A DNA stretch of 64,000 nucleotides, from contig CAWGTN010000002.1 of the NCBI GenBank assembly GCA_963825525.1, positions 1,536,001 through 1,600,000 of the forward strand. The letters are read 5' to 3'. A model generated the notes under the pieces. The model was not told where the DNA came from, searched no databases, and worked only from the letters and a program-made list of their open reading frames with translations. Of the stretch, positions 17,570 to 31,458 are shown piece by piece. Positions within the stretch are counted from its first letter, which is position 1, and each line of letters begins with the position of its first letter. The position numbers were made by a program, and so were the translations under genes. The stretch is from an uncultured Chloroflexia bacterium (GTDB taxonomy: Bacteria; Chloroflexota; Limnocylindria; QHBO01).

Positions 17570-19096
17570 TCACCACAGCGGCCCGAATGCGGTCAGGCCG
17601 GCACCACGGACTGCATCGAGGATCCGGTCGACCGGTGCCGCGATCAACTCGAGGACCGGCCCCGGATACACCCCGAGGGCCACGACCAGGATGATGAGGG
17701 GCGCCAGCGCGATCCATTCATTGCGATTGATGTCGCGCAGCGCCGGCCACGACTGGCGCATCCAGTCGGACGGCACGGTGAAGAAGACGCGCTGGAACAT
17801 CCACAGCATGTACACCGCGCTGATGATGACGACGATCATGGTCGCCGCGGCGATGAATCCATTGGCACGGAACGCCCCGAGAATCACGAGGAACTCCCCG
17901 ACGAACCCGGAAAGCCCGGGGAGCCCGATGCTGGCGAAGGTGAAGAGGCCGAACATCGCGGCATAGCGCGGGATACGGGCGTTGAGCCCGCCCATGTGGG
18001 CGATGAGCCGGTCATGGGTCTGCTCGTACAGGATCCCGACCAGCATGAACAGCGCGCCGGTGGTGATGCCGTGGCTGATCATCTGGTAGATCGCACCCTG
18101 CAGGCCCTGCTCGTTGAAGACGAACGCGCCGAGCATCACGAAGCCCATGTGACTGACGCTCGAGTACGCGACCAGCTTCTTCAGATCGGGCTGGACCATG
18201 GCGACCAGGCCGCCGTAGATGATGGCGATGATGGCGAGGCCGATGATGATCGGCGCGAAGCTGACGGCCGCGTCGGGCAGGAGCGGCAGGCTGAAGCGCA
18301 GGAACCCGTAGCCGCCGAGCTTCAGCATGACGCCGGCCAGGATGATCGAGCCGGCGGTCGGGGCCTCGACGTGCGCGTCGGGCAGCCAGGTGTGGAACGG
18401 CCACATCGGCACCTTGATCGCGAACGCCAGGAAGAAGGCGACGAAGGCCAGTGCCTGGAGCGTATCGGCGTAGGCGAATCCGCGGAGCGCCTCGTAGCTG
18501 AAGGTGAAGGGCTGGCCGCTTGCCGCGTGGGCGATGGCCACGGCCAGGATGGCGACGAGCATGAGCAGCGAGCCGACCAGGGTGTAGAGCACGAACTTCA
18601 CGGTGGCGTAGATGCGCCGTGGCCCGCCCCACACCCCGATGATCACGTACATCGGGAAGAGGCTGATCTCCCAGAAGACGTAGAACAGGAACATGTCGAG
18701 CGCCATGAAGACCCCGAGCATCCCGACCATCAGGAGCAGGAGCGCGATGTAGTACTCCTTGACCCGCTTCTGGATCGGCTCCCAGGAGTAGAAGAGGGCG
18801 ACCACGCTGAGGACGGTGGTCAGCAGCACCAGGACGACCGAGAGACCGTCCACGCCCAGCGTGTAGCGCATGCCGAAGGCCTCGATCCAGGGCAGGTCCT
18901 CCCTGAACTGGAACTCGGATGCCGCCGAGGAGGCGTCGTAGCCGAGCAGCACGAGCGAGAAGGCGAGGCTGGCCAGCGCCGCCCCGAGCGCCACCCAGCG
19001 GATGGCTCGGTGATTGGAGCTCGGAATCAGGAGGAGCAGCAGGACGCCGACGACCGGCATGAAGATGATGAGTGAGAGCACCGGCAGGCCTGTCAT
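17570..19096 (-). CDS. nuoM: NADH-quinone oxidoreductase subunit M
   Basis: LGVDGLS, FYVFWE, KVPMWPFHTWLPDAHVEAPTAGS, LPGLSGFVGE. Confidence 0.95.
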   Translation of the reverse strand: MTGLPVLSLIIFMPVVGVLLLLLIPSSNHRAIRWVALGAALASLAFSLVLLGYDASSAASEFQFREDLPWIEAFGMRYTLGVDGLSVVLVLLTTVLSVVALFYSWEPIQKRVKEYYIALLLLMVGMLGVFMALDMFLFYVFWEISLFPMYVIIGVWGGPRRIYATVKFVLYTLVGSLLMLVAILAVAIAHAASGQPFTFSYEALRGFAYADTLQALAFVAFFLAFAIKVPMWPFHTWLPDAHVEAPTAGSIILAGVMLKLGGYGFLRFSLPLLPDAAVSFAPIIIGLAIIAIIYGGLVAMVQPDLKKLVAYSSVSHMGFVMLGAFVFNEQGLQGAIYQMISHGITTGALFMLVGILYEQTHDRLIAHMGGLNARIPRYAAMFGLFTFASIGLPGLSGFVGEFLVILGAFRANGFIAAATMIVVIISAVYMLWMFQRVFFTVPSDWMRQSWPALRDINRNEWIALAPLIILVVALGVYPGPVLELIAAPVDRILDAVRGAGLTAFGPLW

Positions 19097-21288
19097 CAGC
19101 GCACCACCACCGCCAGCGCAACGAGCACGAGCACCAGGCCGGCGGCGATCCCCAGGCCATAGTTCTCGACTCGACCGGTCTGGACCTTCCGGAGCCCGCC
19201 GCCCACGGTCCGGGCCAGCCAACCGGCTCCGTTCACCGCGCCGTCGATGATCTTCACGTCGAACCACCACAGGGCGTTGCTGAGCAGGACGCCGCCGCGC
19301 GCCCAGACCAGCCCGTAGAGATCATCCACGTAGTACTTGTTCACGCTGGCCCGATACATCCCGGGCCCGAGGCCGAACGGGATGCGCTCCACGAAGCGCA
19401 CGGCCGACTCTGGTCGCTGCACGTACCAGCGATAGGCGAGCAGCACGCCGCCCACCGCGACCGCCGCCCCGATCAGCAGCAGCAGACCGCCGAGGCCGAA
19501 GAGCTCGAAGCCATGGTGCTCGCCATCCGCGATGGAACCGGCGAGGACCCCGGCATGCGACTCCTCGGCGGCATGGAAGATCTCCTCGAGCCAGCCGTGG
19601 ATCACGCCGCCCTCCGGCGGGATGCCGAGAATGAGACCCGCCAGGATGGTGGGCACGGCCAGGATCGCCAGCGGCGCGACCATGGTCGGGGCGCTCTCGT
19701 GGATGTGGTCCCAGGCCGCCTTCGGCCCGCGCCACTCGCCCCAGAACGTCATGAAGATCATGCGGAACGTGTAGAAGGCGGTCATGAAGGCGACGATGGT
19801 GCCCACGAGATAGAAGACGAGGTACCCGCGGTTGAAGGCCTCGGCCAGGATCTCGTCCTTGCTGAAGAAGCCGGAAAAGATCGGGATGCCGGCCAGCGCC
19901 AGCGAGCCGATGACCATGGTGATATAGGTCCAGCGCATCTTCGCCCGCAGGTTGCCCATGTAGCGCATGTCCTGCTCGCCGCCCGCCCCGTGGATGACGG
20001 AGCCCGAGCCCATGAACAGCAGGCCCTTGAAGAAGCCGTGGCTGACGAGATGGAAGATGGCGGCCACCCATGCGCCGATGCCGAGCGCGAAGAACATGTA
20101 CGCCAGCTGGCTGACGGTCGAGTAGGCCAGCACCTTCTTGATGTCGTTCTGGGTCAGGGCGATCGCCGCGGCAAAGATGGCGGTGAAGACGCCGATGATG
20201 GCCACCGTCCACATCGCGACCGGCGCCTCGGCAAAGATCGGGTTGGCGCGGGCGACCAGGTAGACCCCGGCGTTGACCATGGTCGCCGCGTGGATCAGCG
20301 CGCTGACCGGGGTGGGGCCCTCCATCGCGTCCGGCAGCCAGACGTGGAGCGGGAACTGGGCGCTCTTGCCCACGGCGCCGGCGAAGAGGAGCAGCGCGAT
20401 GACCGTGATCGTGGTCTCGTCGAGTGTCCCGATCCGCTCGAAGACCTCGTGGAAGCTCAGCGTCCCCAGGTTGACCCAGATCATCATGATGCCGAGCCCG
20501 AACCCGAAGTCGCCGACCCGGTTGACGATGAACGCCTTCTTGGCGGCCCCGGCGGCGGAGGGCTTCTTGTACCAGAAGCCGATCAGCGCGTAGCTGCACA
20601 GGCCGACGGCCTCCCAGCCGACGTAGAGCATCAGGAAGTTGTCGCCAAGGATCAGCAGCAGCATGCTGAACATGAAGAGGTTGAGGTAGGCGAAGAACCG
20701 CCAGAAGCCGCGGTCGCCGTCCATGTAGCCGATGGAATAGATGTGGACCAGGAATCCGACCGTGCTGACGACGAGCAGGAGCATGGCCGTCAGTGAGTCC
20801 ACCAGGAACGCGATCTCGATGGTGAAGTCGCCCGAGGCGATCCACTCGTAGATCGAGACCTCGTACTCGTTGCCACCGAACACGACGCTGGCGAACACGA
20901 TCATCGAGAAGACCCACATCAGGCCCACGACCGCGGTCGGCACGACCCACGATCGGTAGCGCGGCCGCTCGGCTCCCGGGGCCACGTGGCCGGCCTGGCC
21001 CAGGCCGTCGCTCATGTCGGACGGGATCACGCCATCGGCGCCCTCGGCGTTCGCAAGGTCATCGGCATGGCCGGCATGCGGGCTGGTGGCGCGCTGCTCT
21101 TCCTCGCTCGGGACCGGACGGAACGCAGAATCGTCGACCGCGTGGTCGTCGTGCGTCCCGTGCTCGGCATCGGCGTGTGCGTCGCCATGGCCGTGGCTCG
21201 GAACGCGGTCCAGCCTGGCTCCGGCGAGCACGGCGAACAGGAACCCGACCAGGGGCAGCGCGGGGATGAGGGCGATCAACAGCTCCAC
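19096..21288 (-). CDS. nuoL: NADH-quinone oxidoreductase subunit L, with His/acidic insertion after TM1
   Basis: GKSAQFPLHVWLPDAMEGPTPVSALIHAATMV, KKVLAYSTVSQL, HGFFKGLLF. Confidence 0.95.
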   Translation of the reverse strand: MELLIALIPALPLVGFLFAVLAGARLDRVPSHGHGDAHADAEHGTHDDHAVDDSAFRPVPSEEEQRATSPHAGHADDLANAEGADGVIPSDMSDGLGQAGHVAPGAERPRYRSWVVPTAVVGLMWVFSMIVFASVVFGGNEYEVSIYEWIASGDFTIEIAFLVDSLTAMLLLVVSTVGFLVHIYSIGYMDGDRGFWRFFAYLNLFMFSMLLLILGDNFLMLYVGWEAVGLCSYALIGFWYKKPSAAGAAKKAFIVNRVGDFGFGLGIMMIWVNLGTLSFHEVFERIGTLDETTITVIALLLFAGAVGKSAQFPLHVWLPDAMEGPTPVSALIHAATMVNAGVYLVARANPIFAEAPVAMWTVAIIGVFTAIFAAAIALTQNDIKKVLAYSTVSQLAYMFFALGIGAWVAAIFHLVSHGFFKGLLFMGSGSVIHGAGGEQDMRYMGNLRAKMRWTYITMVIGSLALAGIPIFSGFFSKDEILAEAFNRGYLVFYLVGTIVAFMTAFYTFRMIFMTFWGEWRGPKAAWDHIHESAPTMVAPLAILAVPTILAGLILGIPPEGGVIHGWLEEIFHAAEESHAGVLAGSIADGEHHGFELFGLGGLLLLIGAAVAVGGVLLAYRWYVQRPESAVRFVERIPFGLGPGMYRASVNKYYVDDLYGLVWARGGVLLSNALWWFDVKIIDGAVNGAGWLARTVGGGLRKVQTGRVENYGLGIAAGLVLVLVALAVVVR

Positions 21289-21298
21289 GGGTGTCTGC

Positions 21299-21604
21299 CT
21301 ACTCCTTCAGATCGGAGTACTGATCGACCTCGGCCGTCTGACGCGTCCGGATGATCGCAATCACCAACGCCAGGCCCACGGTCACCTCGGCTGCGGCGAC
21401 GGCCATGATCATGAGCGCGAAGACGGCGCCCGCATTCGAATCGGGTGGGAGGAAGGCGTTGAAGGCGACCAGGCTCAGGTTCACGGCGTTGAACATCAGC
21501 TCGATGCTGATGAGCATGAGGATCGCGTTGCGGCGGGCCATGAAGCCGAACGTCCCGATGCCGAACAGCATCACGGAGACGATGAGGTAGCCGGTGAGTC
21601 CCAT
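21299..21604 (-). CDS. nuoK: NADH-quinone oxidoreductase subunit K
   Basis: RRNAI..LISIELMFNAVN, AVAAAEVTVGLA. Confidence 0.95.
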   Translation of the reverse strand: MGLTGYLIVSVMLFGIGTFGFMARRNAILMLISIELMFNAVNLSLVAFNAFLPPDSNAGAVFALMIMAVAAAEVTVGLALVIAIIRTRQTAEVDQYSDLKE

Positions 21605-21606
21605 GC

Positions 21607-22116
21607 TCAGTTGGCCCGCTCGTCTTCTTCGGGACGTCGCGCCAGGTAGATGGCGCCGATGATGGCCACCAGGATCAGGAGGCTGATGATCTCGAACGGC
21701 AGCGCAAAGGTGGTGAACACCGCGTTGGCGATGGCGTCAACGGCCGCGGCGACCGGCTGCGGCAGCACGGACCAATCCGTCTGCACGACCGCCCATCCCA
21801 CGACGCCAATGAGGCCGAGCGCCACGACGGCCGCGATCGGAACCTGGCGGTGGAACGGTGCCGGCAGGTTCGCATCGCCAGCCTGGGTCAGCATGATGGC
21901 AAACAGGATGAGCACGCTGATCGCGCCCAGGTAGATGAGGACCTGGGCTGCCGCCACGATGGGGGCGCCGAGCAGCGCATACATCCCGGCCAGTGAGCCG
22001 AAGCAGATCATCATTGCCACGGCCGAATGGATGATGTTGCGCAGCGTCACCACGGCAATGCCGGCTCCCACAACGCCGATGGCGAGCAGGAAGAACAGGA
22101 CGCTGGAGATATCCAG
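21607..22116 (-). CDS. nuoJ: NADH-quinone oxidoreductase subunit J (probable CTG start)
   Basis: AAQVLIYLGAISVLILFAIML, LPFEIISLLIL; extension to CTG 22116 (9 nt after AGGAG) restores TM1 (DISSVLFFLLAIGVV). Confidence 0.9.
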   Translation of the reverse strand: MDISSVLFFLLAIGVVGAGIAVVTLRNIIHSAVAMMICFGSLAGMYALLGAPIVAAAQVLIYLGAISVLILFAIMLTQAGDANLPAPFHRQVPIAAVVALGLIGVVGWAVVQTDWSVLPQPVAAAVDAIANAVFTTFALPFEIISLLILVAIIGAIYLARRPEEDERAN

Positions 22117-22138
22117 GGTCGAATGCTCCTGAGAGAGG

Positions 22139-22183
22139 TTGAGCGCTCAAAACGGTCCCGCTCGGGGACCGCGCTCGATTCTA
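22139..22183 (-). promoter_or_regulatory. Putative internal promoter for nuoJKLMN
   Basis: Minus-strand -10 TAGAAT (22183-22178), leader hairpin at 22154-22170, 12-bp palindrome TTGAGCGCTCAA (22139-22150). Confidence 0.4.
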
Positions 22184-22272
22184 GCGCAGGCATTGCGTGG
22201 TCGCGCGCTGACCCCGTACCCTGCGCGGAACCGCCGACCCTGGCGGAGGAGTGGATGGAGGACGAGGTCACG

Positions 22273-22641
22273 ATGACGAGACGGACCGTTCCGGTACTCG
22301 CGGCGCTCGCGATCGCCCTGGCCGCATGCGGCGGCGGCGGCGGCGGAGGTGGCGCCAACGATGGCGCGGACAATCCGACCAAGGCCACGGTCGAGGCCGG
22401 TGCCGAGCGCGTTGCCTACCTGCTCGCCCCCGGACGGTACCGGATGACGATCAACGAGGACTGCGACGACTACACCATCGCGATCACCCAGGACGGCGGC
22501 GACTTCACGTACACCCTCGACAATTCGCCGATCCGTTTCGTCTTCGTGAACGACGTGCCGGCCGGCAGCTTCTTCATCGAGCAGACCAACGAGGCGTGCA
22601 CTGAGTGGAGCGTTGACCTCAGCAGAGTGAACGCCCCCTGA
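22273..22641 (+). CDS. Small lipoprotein, antisense within the nuo cluster
   Basis: MTRR + hydrophobic stretch + lipobox LAAC, poly-Gly linker, beta-rich domain with two Cys; SD GAGGT. Confidence 0.75.
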   Translation: MTRRTVPVLAALAIALAACGGGGGGGGANDGADNPTKATVEAGAERVAYLLAPGRYRMTINEDCDDYTIAITQDGGDFTYTLDNSPIRFVFVNDVPAGSFFIEQTNEACTEWSVDLSRVNAP

Positions 22642-22695
22642 TCCGACTCGGTGGTCACGCGGATGGCCCCTGAGCCGAAGATGGAACGAATTGGT

Positions 22696-22726
22696 GCGTC
22701 CGGCACGCCACACGAGTGCCGGACGC
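22696..22726. terminator. 11-bp stem-loop between convergent genes
   Basis: GCGTCCGGCAC-N9-GTGCCGGACGC. Confidence 0.5.
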
Positions 22727-22739
22727 TTCCCACGTCGGT

Positions 22740-25136
22740 CTAGCGGGTGGGGCGCTCCCGGTCGGACATCTCGAGAATGTCGAGCATCGGCAGGTCGCGC
22801 TGGTACTCGCTGAACTCGAACTCGGGGCCGCATCGCAGCGCGTCGTACGGACAGGCATCGGCGCAGATGCCACAGAAGATGCAGCGGCTGATATCGAGCT
22901 GGTAGGTCTCGAGGATGCGCGGGCGCGGCATGAGCGCGCCGACCGGGCAGGTCTCCGCGCATCGGCCACAGGAGACGCACGGCGTCTCGTTGAGTGACAC
23001 GAAGTCGGCGGTGGTGACCAGCGAGTCGAAGCCCTTGCCGATGAAGTCGTAGCAGCCGGCGCCCACGATCTCCTTGCAGACCTGGGCGCAGCGGCCGCAG
23101 TCGATGCAGCGGCTGTAGTCGCGCAGGATGAACGAATGCGTCTCGTCCCGGCCGTAGCCGTGGTTCACGCCGACGTACGGGTTGTCCTGGATCGAGCGCT
23201 CGTCGATCGCCATGTTCAGCGTCGTCTCGTACTCGATGGCCGCCTCGCGCAGGTCGCAGTGCCCGATCGCCTCGCAGGTGCACTGAAGGCATCGGCCCGC
23301 CTCGGCCATGGCCTGGTCGCCGGTGTAGCCGAACTCGTACTCGTTGAAGTTCGTGCGGCGCTCGTCGGCCTCCTGCTTGCCCATGATGGCGCGTGGTTCC
23401 TTCACGTCGTCGGTGAAGGGCACGATGGTCAGGAAGTTCGGCTGCGGCTCGGTGACGATGCGGCGCACCTGCGGGTCGTCGAGGTCATGGCCGCGCAGCC
23501 AGTAGTCCATGGCGTAGCTGGCGCGGCGTCCCTCGCCGATCGCCTCGACCACGGTGGCGGCGCCGGTCCGAACGTCGCCGGAGGCGAAGATCTTCGGGAC
23601 ATTGGTGCGGAAGATGTGCTCCTCGGCGACCAACGTGCCGCGGCGCGAGACCTCGAGGCCGGCCCGAATCTCCTCCGGCTCGGACTCGATCCATGACAGC
23701 TCGGGTCCCTGGCCGATGGCGCCGAGGACGGTGTCGCACTCGACGATGAACTCGGTGCCGGGCATCGGCTCGGGCCGACGGCGGCCCTGCGCATCGGGCT
23801 CGCCCAGCTTCATGCGCTGGAACTCGACGCCGTTCACCTTGTCATCGGCGCCGGTCACGATCCGCGTCGGTGCGGCCTGGAAGATGACGCGCGCGCCCTC
23901 CTCGATCGCCTCGTGCACCTCGTCGGCGGCGGGCATGTCCTTGAGGTCGCGGCGATAGACGAGCGTGACCTCCGCCGCGCCCTGCCGGACGCTGGTCCGG
24001 GTGCAGTCGATGGCGGTGAAGCCGCCGCCGATGACCACGACCCTCGCATTCTTCAGGCGCGGGACGGGGACGCCGCGGGTCGAGTTGTAGAGGTTCTCGA
24101 GGGCGTTGACCGTCCCATCGGCCTCTTCGCCCGGGATGCCGAGCTCGTTCGGCTTGTAGCAGCCGATGCCGACGTAGATGGCGTCGTAGTCGTCGATGAT
24201 GTCGCCCAGGTGGAAGTCACGACCGAGGCGCATGTTCGGCTTGAAGGTCGCGCCCAGCTCCCACACGTGGTTGAGCTCGCGGTCCATCCAGCCCTTGGGC
24301 AGCCGGTACTGGGGGATGCCGTAGCGCAGCATGCCGCCCTGCTCCGGGTCGGCCTCGTAGACGTCGCACTGATGGCCGCGCAGCTGGAGGTAATAGGCCG
24401 CGGTCATGCCGGCCGGTCCGGCGCCGATGATCGCCACCTTGCGACCGGTGGGCGGATCCTTCGGCCACGGAATCGGGGCAGGGGCGTCCACTTCGAGCAC
24501 CCGGTCGGCGCAGTAGCGATGCGAGTCACGGATGGCGATGGCCGTGTCGACTTCCTCACGGCGGCAGTGCGTCTCGCACGGAGCGGGACACACGCGGCCG
24601 AGGATGGCGGGGAAGGGAAGGGAGCGCTTGAGGATGCGCGTCGCCTCTTCCCAGTTGCCCAGGGTGTTCTGCTTCAGGTAGCCCGGGATATCGACGCGGG
24701 TGGGGCACTTGAACTGGCACGGGGGAAGGCAGTAGGCGTCGTGGTCGCTGAAGATGAGCTCGAGGACCATGCGACGGTTCTCGATGACCCGCTCGGAGTG
24801 GGTGGTGATGACCATCCCCTCCTCGATGGTCGTTCCGCAGCTGATGGGTGTGTCGTCGCGACCCTCGACCTCGACCGCGCAGATGCGGCAGGCGCCGTAC
24901 GGCGCGAGCTTGGGCTCGTAGCACAGGGTCGGGACGTCGATCCCCAGCACGCGACAGGCCTGGAGGATGGTCTGTCCCTCCTCGACCTGGAGCTCCTTGC
25001 CGTTGATGGTGACGCCGATCTCGCGCGTCCCGGGCACCATCGGCCAGATCGGGGTGTAATCGGCACTCGGGCCGTCACCCGCGCTGCCGTTGCCTGCCCC
25101 GTGGCCGTTCGTTCCGTTCGTCGTTCCGAAGCCCAT
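22740..25136 (-). CDS. NuoG-N-terminal Fe-S / GltD-like FAD-NAD(P)H oxidoreductase / NuoI C-half fusion
   Basis: 2Fe-2S motif CYEP..GACRIC..SC; PPCQFKCP and GRVCPAPCETHC; IIGAGPAG; GGGFTAIDC..YRR; RCLQCTC..HCDL; two CxxCxxCxxxC motifs; C-terminal YQLDISRCIFCGICADACPYDALRCGPEFE. Confidence 0.9.
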   Translation of the reverse strand: MGFGTTNGTNGHGAGNGSAGDGPSADYTPIWPMVPGTREIGVTINGKELQVEEGQTILQACRVLGIDVPTLCYEPKLAPYGACRICAVEVEGRDDTPISCGTTIEEGMVITTHSERVIENRRMVLELIFSDHDAYCLPPCQFKCPTRVDIPGYLKQNTLGNWEEATRILKRSLPFPAILGRVCPAPCETHCRREEVDTAIAIRDSHRYCADRVLEVDAPAPIPWPKDPPTGRKVAIIGAGPAGMTAAYYLQLRGHQCDVYEADPEQGGMLRYGIPQYRLPKGWMDRELNHVWELGATFKPNMRLGRDFHLGDIIDDYDAIYVGIGCYKPNELGIPGEEADGTVNALENLYNSTRGVPVPRLKNARVVVIGGGFTAIDCTRTSVRQGAAEVTLVYRRDLKDMPAADEVHEAIEEGARVIFQAAPTRIVTGADDKVNGVEFQRMKLGEPDAQGRRRPEPMPGTEFIVECDTVLGAIGQGPELSWIESEPEEIRAGLEVSRRGTLVAEEHIFRTNVPKIFASGDVRTGAATVVEAIGEGRRASYAMDYWLRGHDLDDPQVRRIVTEPQPNFLTIVPFTDDVKEPRAIMGKQEADERRTNFNEYEFGYTGDQAMAEAGRCLQCTCEAIGHCDLREAAIEYETTLNMAIDERSIQDNPYVGVNHGYGRDETHSFILRDYSRCIDCGRCAQVCKEIVGAGCYDFIGKGFDSLVTTADFVSLNETPCVSCGRCAETCPVGALMPRPRILETYQLDISRCIFCGICADACPYDALRCGPEFEFSEYQRDLPMLDILEMSDRERPTR

Positions 25137-25156: not shown

Positions 25157-26521
25157 CTAAGCGCCCGCCGCCGGATCGACTCCGGCAAGAGGCTCGAGAA
25201 GAGGGTGGACGCCGTCGGTGCGGCAGGCGCCGGCCAGGCATTCGCCGCGTTCCGCGTGCGCCCGGTACTCATCGGTGAATCGATCGAGGGTGGTGAGGAT
25301 CGGTCCCGATGCGAGCCGCTCCAGCTTGCAGAGCGCCGTGTCGCTCACCTTGCGCGACAGCTCGCGCAGGAGGTTGAAGTCGTTCGGCCGCGGCGTGGCT
25401 GCGAGGATGCGATCCATGGTCTCGACCAGGCGCTTCGTGCCGATCCGGCACGGGACCGCCTTGCCGCATGCCTCCCGCGCGTTGAAGTCGATGAAGAATC
25501 GGGCGGTGTCGACCATGCAGGTGGCGCTGTCGGTGACGAGCACCGATCCGGAGCCGATGATGGCGCCCGCTTCCTCGAGCGACTCGTAGTCGAACGGCAT
25601 GTTGAGCGAGCCGGCGTCGATGGCCCCACCACCCGGACCGCCGACAAACAGCGCCTTGGTGGTGCCGGTCCCGCCGCCCGCCATTCCGAGCAGGTCGATG
25701 AGCGGTGTTCCCAGCGGCACCTCGACGAGGCCCGGGGTGCCGACGCGGCCCATGATCGTGACGAGCTTGGTGCCGTGGCTGCCTTCGCTCCCAACCGACG
25801 CGAACGCATCCGGCGAGTGGGCCATGATCCATGCCACATGCGCCAGCGTCTCGCCGTTCTGGACGACGGTCGGGGCGCCGTTCAGCCCCTTCTGGGCCGG
25901 GTACGGTGGCCTGATGAGCGGCATGCCGCGGTCGCCGGAGAGGGCGTTGATGAGCGCCGTCTCCTCGCCCGCCACGTAGGCGCCGGAGCCCTCCCACACG
26001 CTGAGCTGGACGCTGGTGTCCGTGCCCAGCACGAGGTAGCCACCCAGGTGCGCATCGGTCGCCTCCGCGATGGCGGCTTGAAGGCGCTCGATGGCGACGG
26101 TCCAGTCACGCCGCACGGCGATGATCGCCTCGCTGGCGCCGGCCGCATACGCCGCAATGACGAGTCCCTCGACGATCAGATGTGGGTTGCCCTCGGCCAG
26201 GGCGCGGTCGCCGAGTGCGCTGGGATCTGCCGCCATGAGGTTGGCGACCACCACCCTGCGATCTCCCGGGGCATCACGCGCGACCCGCCACTTCGCCGCG
26301 GTCGGGAACCCCGATCCGCCGCGACCGCGAAGTCCCGCCGCCTCGATGTCACGAATGACCTCCTCGGGCGCCAGCTTGGTGATGGCGCGCTCGAGTCCGG
26401 CGTACCCGCCGTGCTCGCGGTAGCTCGCGAGGCTGCCCGGGTCAACACGGCCGATGTCGGTCAGGAGACGCGGCTCTCCCTCGGTGAGGATCCGGATCTG
26501 TGGCGAGAGGGTGCCGGTCAT
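25157..26521 (-). CDS. nuoF: NuoF/HydB-like flavoprotein subunit, divergent
   Basis: GLRGRGGSGFPT..KW, GAYVAGEETAL, PPYPA..GL.G.PT; NADEGEPG replaced by NLMAADPS; N3 motif reads CGKAVPC..C. Confidence 0.85.
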   Translation of the reverse strand: MTGTLSPQIRILTEGEPRLLTDIGRVDPGSLASYREHGGYAGLERAITKLAPEEVIRDIEAAGLRGRGGSGFPTAAKWRVARDAPGDRRVVVANLMAADPSALGDRALAEGNPHLIVEGLVIAAYAAGASEAIIAVRRDWTVAIERLQAAIAEATDAHLGGYLVLGTDTSVQLSVWEGSGAYVAGEETALINALSGDRGMPLIRPPYPAQKGLNGAPTVVQNGETLAHVAWIMAHSPDAFASVGSEGSHGTKLVTIMGRVGTPGLVEVPLGTPLIDLLGMAGGGTGTTKALFVGGPGGGAIDAGSLNMPFDYESLEEAGAIIGSGSVLVTDSATCMVDTARFFIDFNAREACGKAVPCRIGTKRLVETMDRILAATPRPNDFNLLRELSRKVSDTALCKLERLASGPILTTLDRFTDEYRAHAERGECLAGACRTDGVHPLLEPLAGVDPAAGA

Positions 26522-27354
26522 GCTCGGTCACGACCCCCGGCCGGCGCGGCCGCCCGGCGCTCACCGACGATGTGCAGGGCCTTCTCTTCGTCGAGCGGGC
26601 CGTACACGAGGGTATCGATCCGCATGGCCGGGCTCAGCGCCCCGGCGCCGACGTCGGGTCGTGTCTCGAGCGAGAACCGGCCGTCTGCCGTCGTCTCGCC
26701 GGGCCGGATGCCGAGCTCCCGTTCGATCGCCGAGAGCAGGCGATCGCCGCCGGCGAACCGACAGGAGGCGCAGTCGCACACCGTCACCAGGTGGCCACTG
26801 GCCGGCAGCAGGCGGAATCCACCGAGTCCGGCGGCACCGAAGACCTGGGCCCAATGGATCGTCATTCGGTCGCTGATCCGGCGCAGTGCCCGCTCCGGGA
26901 GATAGCCATATCGCTCCTCGATGGCGCGGAAGATGGCAACCAGCGCCTCGGGGCGTCCGCCGAACCCGTCAATGACCTGGTCCACGAACGGCGTGTCGAT
27001 CGCCTCGTCCCAGCGCGCCGCGTTTCGCATCGGTTTGGCCTCCAGACCGGCACGTCGATAGGCGTTGGGATCCTTGCGCTCGTCATAGATCTCCGGCATG
27101 CCGTAGCGGATCCGGTTGCCGGTCGAGTCGAACCCGCTCATGTCGATGGCCTCGACCGGACAGACCTGGGCGCACTGGAAGCACACCTCGCACTTGTGCT
27201 CCCCGAACGGGTCGTAGATCAGGTCGAGACGGCCGCGCCAGCGATCGGGGATCTCGGGGCGCTGCTCCGGATACTGCCGCGTCACCTTCGGCGCGAAGAA
27301 GTTCCGCAGGGTCGTCGCCATGCCCTTCGCGATGCCGGAGCCGGGAAATGCCAT
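26518..27354 (-). CDS. NuoI N-half / NuoE-like fusion protein
   Basis: GMATTLRNFF..KVTRQYPE...RWRGR...CEVCFQCAQVCPVEAI (first NuoI half), then NuoE-like YGYLPE, VTVCDCASC, GETTADGRFSLE; SD AGGAGG. Confidence 0.85.
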   Translation of the reverse strand: MAFPGSGIAKGMATTLRNFFAPKVTRQYPEQRPEIPDRWRGRLDLIYDPFGEHKCEVCFQCAQVCPVEAIDMSGFDSTGNRIRYGMPEIYDERKDPNAYRRAGLEAKPMRNAARWDEAIDTPFVDQVIDGFGGRPEALVAIFRAIEERYGYLPERALRRISDRMTIHWAQVFGAAGLGGFRLLPASGHLVTVCDCASCRFAGGDRLLSAIERELGIRPGETTADGRFSLETRPDVGAGALSPAMRIDTLVYGPLDEEKALHIVGERRAAAPAGGRDRA

Positions 27355-27366
27355 GGGTTCGCCCTC

Positions 27367-28377
27367 CTACAGGTCGAAGACGACCACGGCGATGGCCGTG
27401 ATGAACAGGTTGACGAGGGCGAGAGGCAACAGGACCTTCCACGCCATGCCCATGAGCTGATCCACGCGCATGCGGGGCAGGGTGGCGCGCAGCCAGACCG
27501 CGATGGACACGAAGATGTAGGTCTTGAGGAAGAACCAGAAGATGCCATAGAGGGTGCCGCCGAATCCATCGAGCTGTGCCGGGAACGGCCAGGGCGCCAG
27601 CCAGCCGCCGAAGAAGAGGCTGACCAGGATGCCGCTCATGATGAACAGCGCGACGTACTCGGCGAAGAAGAAGAACCCGAAGCGCATCCCCGAGTACTCG
27701 GTGAAGGGGCCGGCCACCAGCTCCGAGTCTGCCTCGACCATATCGAACGGGGTCCGGTTCACCTCCGCCAATGAGCTGATGTAGAAGATGCCGAGGCCGA
27801 CCGGTTGCCACACCAGGAGCCAGCCATGGTCCCGCTGCCAGGCGATGAGCTCGCTGAAGTTCAGCGTGCCGGCCAGGACCACCGCCCCCACGATCGAGAG
27901 GGTGAGCGGAATCTCGTAGCTCACCATCTGGGCCGCCGCGCGCAGCCCGCCGAGGAGCGAGTACTTGTTGTAGCTCGCCCAGCCGGCCACGAGGAGCCCC
28001 ACAACCGAGAGGCCGAGCACCGCGAAGAAGTAGACGATGCCGATGTTGAAGTCGGCGGCGACGGCACCCGGCGCGAACGGGATCACGAGCATGCTCATCG
28101 CCGCGGCCATGTAGACCATCCACGGCGCGAGGGTGAACGTCCCGCGGTCCGCCTGGTCGGGCACCGTGTCCTCCTTGGCGAGGACCTTGAACCCGTGGAT
28201 CGTGCTCTGGAAGATGCCGCGCGGACCGATGCGGTTCGGTCCGAAGCGCAGGTTCATCTGGGCGATGATCTTCATCTCCATCTGGATGATGACGAACGCC
28301 GTCGGAACGGTGAGCAGCAGCAGCAGCGTCGTCGCCAGGATGAATCGGCCGAGGCCGAGAAGCAGCTCGAAGTCCAT
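27367..28377 (-). CDS. nuoH: NADH-quinone oxidoreductase subunit H
   Basis: RFGPNRIGP, NKYSLLGGLRAAAQMVSYE, NRTPFD..EADSELVAG..TEYSG, RATLPRMRVDQL. Confidence 0.95.
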   Translation of the reverse strand: MDFELLLGLGRFILATTLLLLLTVPTAFVIIQMEMKIIAQMNLRFGPNRIGPRGIFQSTIHGFKVLAKEDTVPDQADRGTFTLAPWMVYMAAAMSMLVIPFAPGAVAADFNIGIVYFFAVLGLSVVGLLVAGWASYNKYSLLGGLRAAAQMVSYEIPLTLSIVGAVVLAGTLNFSELIAWQRDHGWLLVWQPVGLGIFYISSLAEVNRTPFDMVEADSELVAGPFTEYSGMRFGFFFFAEYVALFIMSGILVSLFFGGWLAPWPFPAQLDGFGGTLYGIFWFFLKTYIFVSIAVWLRATLPRMRVDQLMGMAWKVLLPLALVNLFITAIAVVVFDL

Positions 28378-28380
28378 CGG

Positions 28381-29664
28381 CTACTTGTCCACGCCGCCCA
28401 TGACCGGGTCGAGGCTGGCCATCACCGCCATGGTGTCGGCGACCAGCCGGCCCGGCATGAGCTTCGGCAGTGCCTGGAGGCTGATGAAGCTGGGATCGCG
28501 CATCCGGAAGCGGTACGGGTTCGGGCCTCCGTCGCTGATGGCATAGACGCTGTACAGGCCGCGTGGCGACTCGACCGCGCCGTACGCGCGGCCCGGCCGT
28601 GGACGGATGATGCCGGGGACCTGGGCCTGCACCGCCCCGTGGGGCATCTTGTCGATGATCTGGTCGATGAGGTGGATGCTCTGCTTGATCTCGGCGATGC
28701 GCTGCAGGTAGCGGGAGTAGGAATCTCCGCCCTCCTGGGTGATGACGTCGAACTCGAGCTCGTTGTAGATCGAGTAGGGCTTCGCCTTGCGGACATCGAA
28801 GGGGACGCCGGATGCTCGCAGGTTCGGACCGGTGACGCCGAGACTGATGGCCTCCTGGCCGGTGAGCGTGCCCATGTTGATCGTCCGTGCTCGGAAGATC
28901 TCGTTCTCGGTGATCATGTGCTCGTTCATCTCGATGTTCTTCATGACGTTGCCGCGCCACGTGCCGAGACGGCTGAGGAACTCGTCGTTGGTGTCGAAGT
29001 TCACGCCACCCACGCGGAAGAAGTTGAAGAGCATGCGCTGGCCGCTGATGGCCGACAGCATGTCGACGATCTCGTCGCGATTGATGAACGCGTAAAGGAT
29101 CGGGGTGATGCCGCCCATGTCGAGCGCCAGGAAGCCCATCATCAGCCCGTGGCTGAAGATGCGATTCAGCTCCACGACCAGTGCGCGGATGTACTCGGCG
29201 CGCGGCGGTGCCTTGATGCCGTACAGCTTCTCGAACGCGATGGCCGGTGCATGCTCGTTGTGCATGGTCGACAGGTAGTCCATGGGGTCCACGTAGGTGA
29301 GAACGGTGGTGTACGTCGCGTTCTCGCACAGCTTCTCGATGCCGCGATGGAGGTAGCCAAGGACGGGGTCGATGTCGACGATGATCTCGCCGCGAACCTT
29401 GACCACCAGCCGCATCACGCCGTGGGTCGACGGGTGCTGCGGCCCCATGTTCACGAGCATCTCCCCCTCGTCCAGGGTGTAGACCTCGCGCTCCCGTTCC
29501 GTCTGGGGTGGTCGATCCGGGATCCCGACCTGGTCGAAGCCCGCGTACTCGCCCGCACTCGTTCGGACCGGCGTCAGGCCGGCGACCGCGCGGAGGCGTT
29601 CCTCTTCGAGCCGATCCAGCTCGATCGGGTCGGGGATTCGCGTCTCCGGATCCACGCTCGTCAT
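28381..29664 (-). CDS. nuoD: NADH-quinone oxidoreductase subunit D
   Basis: NMGPQHPSTHGVMRL, GYLHRGIEK, GPNLRASG, ESPRG, SLDPVMGGVDK. Confidence 0.95.
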   Translation of the reverse strand: MTSVDPETRIPDPIELDRLEEERLRAVAGLTPVRTSAGEYAGFDQVGIPDRPPQTEREREVYTLDEGEMLVNMGPQHPSTHGVMRLVVKVRGEIIVDIDPVLGYLHRGIEKLCENATYTTVLTYVDPMDYLSTMHNEHAPAIAFEKLYGIKAPPRAEYIRALVVELNRIFSHGLMMGFLALDMGGITPILYAFINRDEIVDMLSAISGQRMLFNFFRVGGVNFDTNDEFLSRLGTWRGNVMKNIEMNEHMITENEIFRARTINMGTLTGQEAISLGVTGPNLRASGVPFDVRKAKPYSIYNELEFDVITQEGGDSYSRYLQRIAEIKQSIHLIDQIIDKMPHGAVQAQVPGIIRPRPGRAYGAVESPRGLYSVYAISDGGPNPYRFRMRDPSFISLQALPKLMPGRLVADTMAVMASLDPVMGGVDK

Positions 29665-30254
29665 CGCGCGCCGCTCCCGTTGGAATCCGTTGGCGCTTCC
29701 GTCGCGCCCGGCGTGTCGCGGTAGCGGGAGAGGTCCCAGGTCGCGGGCCGCTCGAGCGGGTTCACGCCAGCGGCGGGAGAGTCGGCCGCGTCATCCGGCA
29801 GAAGAAAGTCACGACGCTGCGGAAAGGAGCGGTAGTCGGGGCTCATGTAGATGCGCCGAAGGTCGCGATTGCCGTCGAAGATGATGCCCATCATGTCGTA
29901 CATCTCGCGCTCGTGGAACATCGCCCCCTCCCACAGGTCGGTGATGGTGGGGATGCGCGGATCATCGCGGTCCACGTCGGCACGGATGCGGAGCCAGCCG
30001 GGATGCTTCCAGCTGAACAGGTGGTACACCACCTCGAAGCGCTCCCCGAGTCCGTAGTCGACCGCCGCGGCGTCGGCAAGCATGAAGAAGTCGAGATCGT
30101 CATCGTCGCGCAGGGTCTTGAGGACGTCATGGGCACGGGGCGCACTGACCCGGTACTCGACGGTGTCCTCGTCGGTCCACAGGTCGCGAAGGTCGTCACC
30201 GAGACGCTCGGCCAGCGCCCGGACGAGCGCGCCGGCCGCGGCGGACGTGGTCAG
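29661..30254 (-). CDS. nuoC: NADH-quinone oxidoreductase subunit C (probable CTG start)
   Basis: [38 protein letters not shown]; CTGA overlap with nuoB stop and SD GAAGGAG 7 nt upstream. Confidence 0.9.
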
Positions 30255-30910
30255 CGGACGTCTCCTTCCCAGTTGGTTCGCTGCGGGCCTCGATCCACGT
30301 ACGTGCTCCACTGGCCTCGGCGCTGCTTGACCAGCTCGTGCAGCTTCATCATTCCGTAGATCAGGCCCTCGGGGCGCGGTGGGCAGCCCGGCACGTACAC
30401 GTCGACCGGCATGACCCGATCCACGCCCTGGACCACGCTGTACGAACGCTTGAAACGGCCACCGGATGTCGTGCAGGTGCCCATGGCCACGCACCACTTG
30501 GGCTCGGGCATCTGCTCCCACAGCCGGACGAGCGGCCCGGCCATCTTCGTGGTCAGCGTGCCGGCCACGATCAACACGTCCGCCTGCCGTGGGCTGGCGC
30601 GGAACGGGAACATCCCGAATCGGTCGATGTCGTTCACGCTCGTGGCCGTGCTCATCATCTCGATGGCGCAGCAGCTGAGCCCCGACAGCAACGGCCAGAG
30701 CGAGTTGGCTCGAATGAGGTCGAGGATGTAGTCGGCCTTGGTCGGGATGACCTCGAGCAGGCCGTGGAATCCGCCCTGCGGATGCTCCTCCATCCCGAAC
30801 TCGCGCAGCAGGTCGCTGTCCGCGGCCTGGTCGGGAATGACGATCGGTCCGTTGCCGGGGGTCGACATCAGTTCGGTCGAGCTCCCGGTTGTTGGTCGGT
30901 CTACTGCCAT
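30251..30910 (-). CDS. nuoB: NADH-quinone oxidoreductase subunit B
   Basis: [44 protein letters not shown]. Confidence 0.95.
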
Positions 30911-31260
30911 CGCAGGTCCCCCTTCTTCCACGCGTACAGCTCACCGAACATGAGGATGGCCAGGAAGATGCCGATCAGGACGATCCCCTGGAACTCGAGC
31001 GACCGCACGGTGATCGCCCACAGGTATACGAAGATGATCTCCACGTCGAAGGCCACGAACAGCAGGGCGTATAGGTAAAAGGCAAGTCCGAATCGGCTCC
31101 AGGTGTCGCCGATCGTGTCCACCCCGGACTCGTACGGCAGGCCCTTCTGGGGACGCCGGCGCCGATGGGTGATCAGCCAGCTGAACAGGATCGTGCCGAA
31201 GACGAAGGTCGTCGCGGCAAACGCGAATCCGATGACGTAGAGCAGTCCGGTGTGATCCAT
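30901..31260 (-). CDS. nuoA: NADH-quinone oxidoreductase subunit A
   Basis: [31 protein letters not shown]. Confidence 0.95.
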
Positions 31261-31458
31261 CTCCACTCCGGTTGCACGCGGTGCAGTTGCGTGTCGGGCA
31301 GCGGCCCGACGCTGAGGTTCGTCGTTGGTGGAGCGGTGCGGCGCTGCGTGCACGGCCCGCTCGTTTCACAGTCTAGCAGGGGCGTTCCGCCTCGTGGCCG
31401 CACCGTTCTCGACCATTCCCGCGGTGCGCACCGATATTTCGCCGATAGTTCTGCCGGA

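Follow-up and report, generated by a model that had tools for sequence, protein, structure and literature searches.

Within the window, that is, the whole 64,000-nucleotide stretch of DNA analysed here, a complex I operon contains NuoE- and NuoF-like proteins whose usual cofactor ligands are altered, and the question is what these two proteins do and where electrons enter the complex. The sequence-only reading had proposed that both may be scaffold-only subunits that have lost their cofactors, that they derive from a bifurcating HydABC-like family, and that electron input has moved to a GltD domain.

Operon layout and the divided NuoI subunit

The gene order in the window is nuoA-B-C-D-H-[I-N::E']-F'-[G'::I-C]-J-K-L-M-N, all on the minus strand, where I-N and I-C are the two halves of NuoI and E', F' and G' are the NuoE-like, NuoF-like and GltD-NuoG-like proteins. 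The eleven complex I core genes (A, B, C, D, H, I, J, K, L, M and N) are all found together, NuoI being present as two halves on two polypeptides. The features are as follows.

30901..31353, minus strand: nuoA (ORF list and synteny in related loci; true start uncertain within the ORF)
30251..30931, minus strand: nuoB (Pfam Oxidored_q6, 98.8 bits)
29661..30250, minus strand: nuoC (translation and weak tblastn matches, same place in related loci; start approximate, inside a longer open frame)
28381..29664, minus strand: nuoD (Pfam Complex1_49kDa, 280 bits)
27367..28377, minus strand: nuoH (Pfam NADHdh, 366.9 bits)
26518-27354, minus strand: whole I-N::E' ORF, NuoI first half plus NuoE-like protein (278 aa; PF01257 at residues 125-264, 89.3 bits)
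27055..27354, minus strand: NuoI first half with the first C-x2-C-x2-C-x3-C-P motif, the N-terminus of the NuoE-like protein (alignments to solved NuoI)
26815..27009, minus strand: NuoE-like four-helix N-terminal domain, E' NTD (alignment to NfnC/HydC/StnA chains; kept in 11/11 aligned relatives and in family f2)
26560..26814, minus strand: NuoE-like thioredoxin-like domain, E' CTD (three Cys in loop 1; both loop-2 Cys replaced)
25157..26521, minus strand: F', a NuoF/BfuB-like protein without the BfuB N- and C-terminal cluster domains (454 aa; Pfam Complex1_51K 125.9 bits, NADH_4Fe-4S 78.8 bits, SLBB)
26219..26242, minus strand: altered FMN/NAD loop of F', residues 94-101 (alignments to solved chains and relatives)
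25448..25468, minus strand: N3/B1 motif of F' with Ala for the second Cys, residues 352-358 (alignments; 30/30 and 71/71 relatives)
22740..25136, minus strand: G', with NuoG-type [2Fe-2S] N-terminus, GltD insert (FAD, NADPH, two [4Fe-4S]), further [4Fe-4S] motifs and NuoI second half (Pfam matches; NfnA/StnC alignment)
23487..24728, minus strand: GltD-type FAD/NADPH domain of G', residues about 137-550 (Pfam Fer4_20 and Pyr_redox_2; NfnB/GltD chains, 1e-88 to 1e-70)
22743..22910, minus strand: NuoI second half with the second C-x2-C-x2-C-x3-C-P motif and C-terminal tail, the C-terminus of G' (alignments to solved NuoI)
21607..22071, minus strand: nuoJ (Pfam Oxidored_q3, 117.4 bits)
21299..21604, minus strand: nuoK (ORF; synteny)
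19096..21288, minus strand: nuoL (translation; synteny)
17570..19270, minus strand: nuoM (ORF; synteny)
16096..17559, minus strand: nuoN (ORF; synteny)

Residues 18-77 of I-N::E' align with residues 23-82 of E. coli NuoI and residues 8-76 with residues 76-144 of plant TYKY; the I-C half of G' aligns with residues 90-128 of E. coli NuoI and 86-126 of T. thermophilus Nqo9. Both halves also match the canonical NuoI of the same genome, and they cover complementary parts of solved NuoI, so that all eight NuoI Cys (two motifs for N6a and N6b) are present across two polypeptides. The first motif is invariant in 11/11 aligned relatives and, among the matches listed, has its Cys in 80/80 loci, where the motif as a whole is near-invariant; the four Cys of the second are invariant in 52/52 f1 and 5/5 f3 sequences. 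When the two halves were predicted as a complex with two [4Fe-4S] clusters, they reached a median score of 0.31 where the mark was 0.32 and controls scored 0.00, an outcome that weighs neither for nor against their association. The position of the NuoI first half, at the N-terminus of the NuoE-like protein, is a point that had been missed in the sequence-only reading. In translations read by eye, the stretches C-C, C and C-P occur in NuoB, and H-P-S-T-H-G and G-Y-L-H-R-G in NuoD; these are candidate sites for the N2 ligands and for the quinone-site His and Tyr, respectively. We infer that a three-gene Nfn/Stn-type (Bfu) transhydrogenase cassette was inserted into nuoI, its NuoE-like, NuoF-like and GltD-NuoG-like genes thereby coming to lie inside that gene.

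The layout is found in four families (f1–f4) of Ca. Limnocylindria, uncultured bacteria that are widespread in soil and fresh water. The window's gene order is present in 5/5 fetched loci of f1, its own family, and in 5/5 fetched nuo loci of f3; the tandem trio of I-N::E', F' and G' occurs in all 17 further f3 and f4 loci, and in f2 the F' gene lies beside I-N::E' and G' in 5/5 fetched loci. That f2 has only a canonical NuoF (best matches 36–42% identical) was considered and rejected, because f2 has F' and G' adjoining the I-N::E' fusion. This complex is the sole NuoD locus in 35 of the 37 f1 genomes having a match. The window's genome also encodes a canonical NuoI and a canonical NuoF, as well as PntB and an NDH-2-like gene (30.2 bits; cut-off 27.7 bits); its canonical nuo cluster shows apparent frameshifts, which may be either real or errors of assembly. 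The DNA sequencing runs listed for the sequence are soil and other metagenomes, and no RNA run was among those listed in the search for expression.

Relation to known enzymes and altered sites

The closest solved chains for all three proteins are those of NfnABC/StnABC from C. saccharolyticus, S. ovata and T. sibiricus (entries identified from PMC11829005, PMC10482914 and PMC12018979). F' scores 404–424 bits against NfnB/StnB chains and 275–286 bits against canonical NuoF/Nqo1, and residues 39–762 of G' align with NfnA/StnC chains, the shared GltD insertion included (564 bits). These scores and the shared insertion support the placement of E', F' and G' with the Bfu enzymes, and the proposed derivation from a bifurcating HydABC-like (Bfu) family is thus borne out. 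The module resembles Nfn-Bfu/StnABC (PDB 9BOV/9BP5, 8OH5/8OH9 and 9N5U/9N5V) in its three subunits, gene order, GltD insertion into a NuoG-like N-terminus and Zn (B2) ligands, but here it belongs to a membrane complex I operon. Like the Nfn/Stn-type BfuA (StnC/NfnA), G' has, inserted after its N-terminal [2Fe-2S], a GltD domain bearing two [4Fe-4S] motifs as well as the FAD and NADPH motifs. Unlike that A subunit, it ends in half of NuoI and has no C-terminal pterin-like domain (798 aa, against 963–1178 aa in the solved chains); with the chains of 1172 and 1178 aa, the aligned part stops at about their residue 700. The 26 cluster-motif Cys and the FAD/NADPH glycine motifs of G' are invariant in 52–67 f1 and 5 f3 sequences apart from one Phe (1/56), and the invariant Cys include the four of the [2Fe-2S].

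In contrast to the B subunit of Nfn-Bfu/StnABC, F' has neither the terminal cluster domains nor the A-F-M motif, and it lacks the FMN-loop Asp and one of the B1 Cys. When F' was aligned position by position with solved NfnB/StnB chains, the NuoF substitutions that had been listed from the sequence were recovered, with one correction. The NADEG(D/E)PG loop is replaced by N-L-M-A-A-D-P-S (residues 94-101), with Met for the FMN-loop Asp; A-F-M becomes A-L-G, F281 is also changed, and N-N-V-E-T becomes Q-N-G-E-T. The N3 motif C-x2-C-x2-C reads C-G-K-A-V-P-C, with Ala for its second Cys, and the distant fourth Cys is retained. The correction concerns the R.K stretch, where the loss is only half: the residue directly before P-P is still Arg, as is R303 of T. 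sibiricus NfnB (position counted on our own alignment, with PMC12018979). Neither the N-terminal B5 extension nor the C-terminal two-cluster ferredoxin domain (B3/B4) of BfuB was found in F' on alignment with long relatives, the alignment spanning residues 107–526 of a 584-aa chain, and the observation that the ferredoxin domain is missing holds. The Cys of T-C-M-V and the H...C....C tail are retained, and these are Zn (B2) ligands according to PMC12018979. This site of three Cys and one His is present in the window; among the matches listed, its His occurs in 69/70, its first Cys in 71/71 and its last Cys in 60/70 sequences, and it is lost in 3/26 relatives across families. The AlphaFold2 model of F' has a mean pLDDT of 85.3 and a pTM of 0.87.

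E' differs from the C subunit of Nfn-Bfu/StnABC in lacking the canonical C1 ligand set. Its first loop retains C-x4-C with an extra Cys within it (the CDCASC already noted from the sequence), and both Cys of the second-loop pair are replaced, the stretch reading D-V-G-A-G. The bifurcating BfuBC flavobicluster, defined by a loop Asp and A-F-M FMN pocket, a four-Cys B1 and a four-Cys C1 (PMC12018979), is therefore not found here. Compared with canonical NuoEFG (Nqo2/Nqo1/Nqo3), the folds are homologous, but the FMN loop, four-Cys N3 and four-Cys N1a are absent and the gene position is different. F' has a Tyr in the G-A-Y stretch, as does the canonical NuoF of the same genome. Nqo1 also has this Tyr.

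Nuo-Bfu, a complex of 14 subunits, has been predicted in Geobacter, Deferribacteres, Planctomycetes and Nitrospirae (Schut et al. 2022, PMC9304861). It likewise couples a Bfu-type module to the quinone and membrane modules of complex I, its genes lying midway in the nuo cluster; BfuABC is described as replacing NuoEFG, with the BfuBC core intact and NADH plus ferredoxin proposed as donors. The module here is instead of the NADPH (GltD) type; it lies after nuoH inside nuoI, which it divides in two, and its BC core is dismantled. This clade would have escaped the set of Schut et al., because membership of their BfuB set called for a ferredoxin-type domain, which F' does not have. The Mbx-like operons (Degli Esposti 2015, PMC4758237) also place a GltD-type NAD(P)H flavoprotein on a complex I-related membrane complex, at or near the place of NuoI; in those operons, however, GltD is said to substitute for NuoI in an Mbx-type (non-quinone) complex, whereas here there are two NuoI halves, an 11-subunit quinone-type core and NuoE/NuoF-like proteins. 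In the literature searched, with the supplementary clade lists of PMC9304861, which may include related sequences, standing outside it, no earlier account of this fusion, or of a complex I of NADPH type from these bacteria, was found, PMC9304861 and PMC4758237 being the closest.

Conservation and selection across relatives

The comparison covered 30 family orthologues, of which L007 and L011 come from unpublished genomes; species-level GenBank MAG loci, of which up to 80 were used, roughly 430 further species-level matches standing outside the counts; and a tabulation of 26 relatives from three families, the ligand states of f2 being left out. Values of dN/dS were calculated from 36 pairs among 9 genomes of one genus. 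The altered F' and E' states of the window recur in 30/30 family orthologues (28/28 without L007 and L011), and among the matches listed Ala stands at the second N3 Cys in 71/71 species-level GenBank MAG loci covering the site. Since orthologues and GenBank MAG loci carry the same states, the altered motifs can be taken as neither chance nor sequencing noise. In loop 1 of the NuoE-like domain, again among the species-level matches listed, three Cys are present in 80/80 loci, together with an Asp or Glu in 68/80, and the second loop-2 Cys position is Gly in 79/80.

The dN/dS was 0.088 for GltD and 0.085 for NuoI-N, 0.19 for F' and 0.30 for the E' CTD, the Rossmann domain being the lowest part of F' at 0.15. 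The sequence-only reading, which considered the canonical entry decayed or repurposed, had itself proposed dN/dS among relatives as a check; the values of 0.15–0.30 for E' and F' do not bear out decay. Because Ala occupies the N3 Cys position in 71/71 loci and the dN/dS of F' is 0.19, the altered states are best regarded as fixed. Pseudogene status for E' and F' was rejected on account of their intact frames and low dN/dS.

Retention varies among the 26 relatives. The FMN-loop Asp is kept in none and the second B1 Cys in only 3, the three remaining N3/B1 Cys are kept in all, the most degenerate protein included, and F' is full-length throughout. The E' CTD is deleted in 10/26, and the canonical C1 ligand set is found in 0/16 of the retained domains. 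In sister families the E of the N-N-V-E-T stretch becomes A or Q, and in one f4 genome the glycine-rich flavin loop of F' is lost too. Kept everywhere are NuoI-N, the E' NTD and, in F', both the fold and its three Cys. Identity between families is 57–59% for G', 42–48% for F' and 37–46% for I-N::E'. Judged from sequence, the bifurcation centre (FMN, B1 and C1) is dismantled, to a degree that differs by genus.

Electron entry and its significance

The explanation that we favour, and consider somewhat probable, is a proton-pumping complex I that receives electrons through a modified Nfn/Stn-type (Bfu) transhydrogenase, with E' and F' acting mainly as a structural bridge. NADPH would reduce the GltD FAD, from which electrons would follow the G' [4Fe-4S] chain to N6a/N6b of the reassembled NuoI and go on to N2 and quinone. 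The parent's bifurcation centre (FMN, B1 [4Fe-4S] and C1 [2Fe-2S], with the ferredoxin-binding domains) would have been taken apart; the E' NTD, F' and G' would form a protein bridge holding the NADPH module together with both NuoI halves, and the three-Cys metal sites of E' and F' (possibly [3Fe-4S] in F') would be structural or off the main path. The enzyme probably oxidises NADPH rather than NADH, because the usual flavin and iron–sulfur sites of the NuoE- and NuoF-like parts have been rebuilt or dropped; homology points to NADPH as the GltD donor, and the complex may work in either direction, by NADPH oxidation or by quinol-driven NADP+ reduction. The earlier proposal that entry has moved to the GltD domain is supported by the comparison, in which the Cys, FAD and NADPH motifs of G' are invariant while the loop Asp is never kept in F', the E' CTD is often deleted and one f4 glycine loop is lost. 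A fuller version is advanced tentatively, at rather less than even confidence: an in-frame operon insertion into nuoI, an N6a/N6b subunit made from two fusions, an NADPH-specific proton-pumping enzyme as sole complex I in much of an abundant class of uncultured soil and freshwater organisms, and a former bifurcation centre turned into a clamp, with a [3Fe-4S]-type cluster at N3 and three Cys plus a carboxylate or His at N1a/C1.

Two observations sit less easily with a bridge. In the window's family the flavin/NAD pocket of F' is largely intact: the glycine-rich loop, G-E-E-T, Arg before P-P, aromatic residue after P-P and N-x-E-T are conserved in 68–73 of 70–73 f1 sequences among the matches listed, so that F' may bind FMN and even NADH. 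G' also keeps the [2Fe-2S] that in relatives leads towards B1/FMN, which would be odd for a dead branch. Of the scaffold-only proposal, therefore, the loss of canonical ligands stands, and 'scaffold-only' is too strong in view of the three N3 Cys, the three loop Cys of E', the conserved pocket stretches and the dN/dS. The three invariant Cys at each altered site suggest remodelled metal sites under selection in F' and E' rather than empty ones, and as such sites argue for metal centres, a purely bridging role is weakened.

It has also to be considered, although we regard it as unlikely, that F' is a working flavoprotein entry, with FMN and NADH at F', or NADH at F' plus NADPH at GltD, electrons leaving through the three-Cys cluster and the G' [2Fe-2S], and the loop changes only retuning the flavin and removing bifurcation. 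The conserved pocket, the low dN/dS of the Rossmann domain, the three B1 Cys in 26/26 relatives and the invariant [2Fe-2S] Cys of G' agree with this, and an NADH site would be useful because this is the only NuoD-bearing complex in nearly all f1 genomes. However, the N-A-D loop Asp, which stabilises the semiquinone (PMC12018979), is kept in 0/26 relatives, the A-F-M motif is changed, and the NDH-2-like gene and PntB offer other NADH routes. The pocket also decays further in sister families (E to A/Q, and one f4 glycine loop destroyed) with the complex retained, so that entry at F' would not be essential to the complex.

That E' and F' are functionless relics heading for loss and held by operon inertia is improbable: they evolve faster than G' and parts are deleted in some genera, but their dN/dS of 0.15–0.30 is far from 1, F' is full-length in 26/26 relatives and stands beside I-N::E' and G' in every fetched f2 locus, the altered motifs are themselves invariant (71/71 and 80/80, among the matches listed), and the E' NTD is part of the same polypeptide as an essential half of NuoI. 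Continued bifurcation or confurcation among NADPH, a second nucleotide or ferredoxin, and quinone, as in the Nuo-Bfu complexes predicted by Schut et al. 2022 (PMC9304861), is highly improbable, since the Bfu descent of the module and its BfuB-typical Zn (B2) site (His 69/70, last Cys 60/70, among the matches listed) are set against the absence of the ferredoxin-binding C-terminal domain (B3/B4) and of B5, a C1 set incomplete in 16/16 retained domains and a domain deleted in 10/26 relatives, and changes in the A-F-M motif and F281 that are typical of bifurcating members (PMC12018979).

To our knowledge, the input modules of complex I are few: NADH through NuoEFG, F420H2 through FpoF, and ferredoxin in NDH-1. 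A GltD-type NADPH module on NuoI would, if true, be a further type of input, and a large, abundant group of soil bacteria would respire NADPH directly or make NADPH by reverse electron flow. Public annotation gives these proteins as plain NuoE/NuoF or 'SLBB domain protein', so that metabolic reconstructions of the class probably mis-assign NADH dehydrogenase. As an essential iron–sulfur subunit that has taken up inserted genes and would be put together again from two fusion proteins, NuoI is an unusual case. The clade also forms a natural series in which a bifurcation centre is dismantled stepwise with its proteins retained, the ligands and domains that remain varying by genus, and this series could help define the role of each part of the B1-FMN-C1 centre.

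Operon layout and the two halves of NuoI

The complex I operon comprises 13 genes on the minus strand of the window, running from nuoA down to nuoN, and its lower end lies at 16096.

Genes of the modified complex I operon (window coordinates)
30901-31353, minus strand: nuoA, followed by nuoB, nuoC and nuoD
27367-28377, minus strand: nuoH, upstream of the 278-aa ORF
26518-27354, minus strand: 278-aa ORF; NuoE-type thioredoxin-like [2Fe-2S] family at residues 125-264, weak 4Fe-4S matches at 52-76
25157-26521, minus strand: F', 454-aa ORF with NuoF domains (Complex1_51K, 125.9 bits; SLBB; NADH_4Fe-4S, 78.8 bits)
22740-25136, minus strand: G', 798-aa ORF with NuoG-type [2Fe-2S], GltD/dihydropyrimidine-dehydrogenase-type 4Fe-4S, pyridine-nucleotide oxidoreductase and C-terminal 4Fe-4S dicluster domains
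Ending at 16096, minus strand: nuoJ, K, L, M and N, downstream of G'

The 278-aa protein, whose NuoE-like part is termed E', begins with the N-terminal half of NuoI in its first 100 residues, where 18-77 align with E. coli NuoI 23-82 and 8-76 with plant TYKY 76-144. The C-terminal half of NuoI forms the last about 56 residues of the GltD-NuoG-like protein G', matching E. coli NuoI 90-128 and T. thermophilus Nqo9 86-126; polyferredoxins outscore NuoI at this C-terminus, but only through summed repeats. Both pieces align to complementary parts of the genome's own canonical NuoI. The C-terminal third of G' carries ligands for four C-x2-C-x2-C-x3-C motifs, two of which form the NfnA/StnC-type ferredoxin domain found in solved chains too, and by homology the last one would pair with the motif on the 278-aa protein. 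Most simply, this layout would go back to one event in which an stnABC-like operon (gene order E-like, F-like, GltD-G-like) landed within the reading frame of nuoI.

Between G' and nuoJ (22072-22739) lies an opposite-strand ORF (plus strand, 22027-22641) whose internal Met precedes a lipoprotein-like signal (a hydrophobic stretch that ends in A-A-C and is followed by a run of Gly). The length of this gap varies among other genomes of the window's family (f1 of the four Ca. Limnocylindria families f1-f4), with about 0.15 kb at the least and 5.2 kb at the most (loci L034-L038); therefore, variable inserts interrupt the operon there. In the N-terminal about 110 residues of NuoL (19096-21288), a His/Asp/Ala-rich insertion stands behind the first helix; it looks f1-specific, since tblastn matches to NuoL in f3 start only at query residues 107-120.

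Origin of the module and its ligand sites

The best solved relatives of all three proteins are chains of transhydrogenases of the bifurcating (Bfu) family. F' scores 423.7 bits against 9bov_B, 413.2 against 8oh5_B and 403.5 against 9n5u_B, compared with 285.6 bits against mycobacterial NuoF and 274.6 bits against T. thermophilus Nqo1; G' scores 563.7 (9bov_A), 515.9 (8oh5_C) and 468.7 bits (9n5u_A) over residues 39-762, a span that takes in the GltD insertion, located as in the solved chains; and the best solved relative of E' is 9bov_C (84.9 bits). These structures are described as NfnABC from C. saccharolyticus (9bov; PMC11829005), StnABC from S. ovata (8oh5; PMC10482914) and NfnABC from T. 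sibiricus (9n5u; PMC12018979). The HydABC-like origin proposed in the sequence-only reading is therefore right, and can be narrowed to the NADPH-type Nfn/Stn transhydrogenases. According to the descriptions in PMC12018979 and PMC11829005, electrons in these enzymes pass from NADPH to the FAD of the GltD domain and reach B1 and FMN by way of the clusters in subunit A, and the "flavobicluster" B1-FMN-C1, where B1 and C1 are the clusters beside FMN at the N3 and N1a positions, bifurcates to NAD and, via the C-terminal ferredoxin domain of subunit B, to ferredoxin. A second GltD-containing G'-like gene lies about 40 kb past the window (G000:C2:1641599-1643425, in the window's own genome) and shows 33% identity over G' residues 136-748.

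Residue-level alignment to the solved chains bears out most of the ligand changes first noticed in the sequence alone. In F', the FMN loop N-A-D-E-G-(D/E)-P-G has become N-L-M-A-A-D-P-S, N-N-V-E-T has become Q-N-G-E-T, and the N3/B1 motif reads C-G-K-A-V-P-C, with its distant fourth Cys retained; F' further keeps the Cys of T-C-M-V and the H...C....C tail, and it lacks a C-terminal ferredoxin domain. The supposed loss of the R.K pair holds only by half, because the Arg before P-P is kept; this is R303 in T. sibiricus NfnB, reported as an NADH phosphate contact (PMC12018979). With NfnB numbers taken from a residue count on the F'-NfnB alignment and the text of PMC12018979, D195, which is said to stabilise the flavosemiquinone (PMC12018979), is lost, A-L-G stands in place of the A-F-M motif and Tyr in place of F281, and the Zn (B2) ligands C437, H524, C529 and C534 are all retained. 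In E', both second-loop Cys are replaced, as had been claimed, and the first loop retains C-x4-C with an additional internal Cys. F' is modelled confidently by AlphaFold2 (pLDDT 85.3, pTM 0.87), with a drop in confidence over residues 181-210, which span the loops from G-E-E-T to R-P-P.

Distribution and conservation in Limnocylindria

The window's organism is placed in Chloroflexota, Candidatus Limnocylindria, by the names under which sources list near-identical proteins and loci. The order nuoA-B-C-D-H-[I-N::E']-F'-[G'::I-C]-J-K-L-M-N, in which I-N and I-C are the first and second halves of NuoI, was found in 5/5 fetched f1 loci and 5/5 fetched f3 nuo loci, and the I-N::E', F', G' trio stands in tandem in 17/17 further f3/f4 loci. 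Among 301 sampled genomes of the phylum, a match running from the NuoI half into the E domain occurs in 16/16 of f1 (window's genome included), 15/15 of f3 and 2/2 of f4. In f2, too, 5/5 genomes carry the fusion immediately upstream of F' and G', with matches at 31-32% identity from residue 6/7 to 169-185. Outside the class, the listed matches of the 86 matching genomes cover either the E part or the NuoI part only, bar four with in-frame stops. With each species represented by one genome, a scan gave 514 stretches encoding fusion relatives, and the best 80 of these belong to Limnocylindria/Chloroflexota MAGs, except four bin labels (three Steroidobacteraceae, one Binatia). A search of sequencing runs for expression listed no RNA run. 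Two f2 loci, L155 (G001:C9) and L156 (G010:C3), consist of the short cluster nuoB-nuoD-[I-N::E']-F'-G' only; no nuoH or nuoJ-N at at least 30% identity was found within 18-19 kb of either, and the f2 membrane-arm genes must be located elsewhere in the genome. The Pfam scan, which covered L155 alone, found unrelated phosphatase genes in its flanks.

F' orthologues of at least 65% identity occur in f1 only (121 genomes of the class), and a single NuoD locus, inside the modified operon, is present in 35 of the 37 f1 genomes with a NuoD match, the exceptions being the window's genome and G394; both tallies partly rest on unpublished genomes. No second NuoD or NuoF locus was found in other genomes of the window's genus. 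The window's genome has a second, canonical nuo cluster with canonical NuoE/NuoF motifs (contig C2, about 3.0-17.9 kb), in which nuoB, nuoD and nuoF each lie across two or three reading frames and nuoH-nuoN are uninterrupted; no comparable frame breaks were found in the 13 genes of the modified operon. The broken genes could reflect pseudogenisation of the canonical complex I or a local assembly error. This genome also encodes PntB (E 8e-181) and gives an NDH-2-type C-terminal domain match of 30.2 bits (cut-off 27.7).

All 40 sampled f1 genomes have an F' match at E 1e-40 or better, the copies in G003, G021, G084 and G096 being only partial or split; this tally, too, rests in part on unpublished genomes. 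In G003 (4 contigs; C2:609465-610636), F' is broken across several reading frames, which reflects either an error of assembly or an ongoing breakdown of F' in this lineage. Among 1.84 billion 50%-identity representatives, relatives of F' comprise one full-length sequence at 73%, four fragments at 71-74% and the rest at no more than 51%. The altered motifs are identical in 30/30 f1 F' orthologues, of which two belong to unpublished genomes. Among GenBank MAG loci at species level, the second N3 Cys is Ala and the other two motif Cys are kept in 71/71, and the lost FMN-loop Asp position is Met or Ile in 70/71; E' loop 1 has three Cys in 80/80, the first loop-2 Cys position is Asp (50), Glu (18) or Asn (4) out of 80, and the second is Gly in 79/80. 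Judged from these loci, the altered motifs of F' and E' are fixed states. The dN/dS values (Nei-Gojobori; 9 genomes of one genus, no unpublished genome, 36 pairs) are 0.19 for F' overall and 0.15 for its Rossmann part, 0.145 for the four-helix and 0.30 for the thioredoxin-like domain of E', compared with 0.085 for the NuoI first half and 0.088 for the GltD domain; therefore, purifying selection acts on both E' and F', with two to three times less strength than on their neighbours.

In a set of 26 F'/E' pairs (4 from f1, 20 from f3 and 2 from f4), the FMN-loop Asp occurs in 0/26 F'; the second B1 Cys position holds Cys in 3 (genera g24 and g29), Thr in 18, Ser in 1 and Ala in 4 (all f1), and the remaining three B1 Cys are kept in 26/26. 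The Zn site is missing from 3/26, and the glycine-rich flavin loop, intact in most, is unrecognisable in one f4 genome, where the G-E-E-T and N-N-V-E-T stretches are changed too. The thioredoxin-like domain of E' is present in 16/26 and deleted or turned into low-complexity sequence in 10/26; in the 16 retained domains loop 1 is always C-x-C-x2-C, and loop 2, whose canonical C-x3-C is never complete, has Cys-His (3), His (9) or Asp/Asn (4). In contrast to this graded loss, G' has kept its 26 cluster-motif Cys unchanged in 52-67 f1 and 5/5 f3 sequences, except one Phe in 1/56, and its FAD and NADPH motifs are conserved too. At locus L042 (G113), where the thioredoxin-like domain is absent, the I-N::E' gene ends in a tandem K-V-R-G-S-S low-complexity repeat that overlaps the start region of F'. 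In the f3 G' proteins (L040-L045), about 70 further residues extend beyond the NuoI second half as a C-terminal tail, which closes with a Gly/Asn/His-rich repeat not present in f1.

Proposed electron route and known systems

What is established is how the genes are arranged, what the three proteins are homologous to, which ligands they carry and how conservation differs between them; on this basis the following route may be proposed. NADPH would be oxidised at the FAD of the GltD domain; electrons would pass through the [4Fe-4S] clusters of G' to N6a/N6b of a reassembled NuoI, whose second half is covalently joined to G' about 20 residues past the last G' ferredoxin motif, and then to N2 and quinone, and the B1-FMN-C1 branch would no longer be catalytic. 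The main rival is that f1 F' still binds FMN and oxidises NADH, because most of its pocket residues are conserved within f1; we regard this as rather unlikely. The universally retained parts (NuoI first half, E' four-helix domain, F' core and G') are those that would hold the assembly together, and the contacts inherited from subunits A, B and C would keep the two NuoI halves clamped. In subunit C of the solved relatives, the four-helix domain is described as fixed and the thioredoxin-like domain as mobile (PMC12018979). The invariance of the three-Cys sites argues that metal centres probably persist in F' and E'. It has been reported that replacement of the second motif Cys in ferredoxins is a [3Fe-4S] cluster signature (PMC2946596), which by analogy may carry over to the N3 site of F'; Zn in place of clusters has precedent within the Bfu family (PMC11829005; PMC12018979).

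For Geobacter and others, Schut et al. (2022) have predicted "Nuo-Bfu" complexes, in which an intact BfuABC takes over electron input from the canonical NuoEFG module (PMC9304861), and Degli Esposti (2015) described Mbx-like operons with a GltD-related protein in place of NuoI (PMC4758237). In the literature searched, apart from the supplements of the cited papers, no prior description was found of an Nfn/Stn-type module inside a split NuoI or of its degenerate BC core, nor any account of the restriction to Limnocylindria or of the sole-complex-I status. The system can be filed as a complex I with an alternative, Bfu-derived input module.
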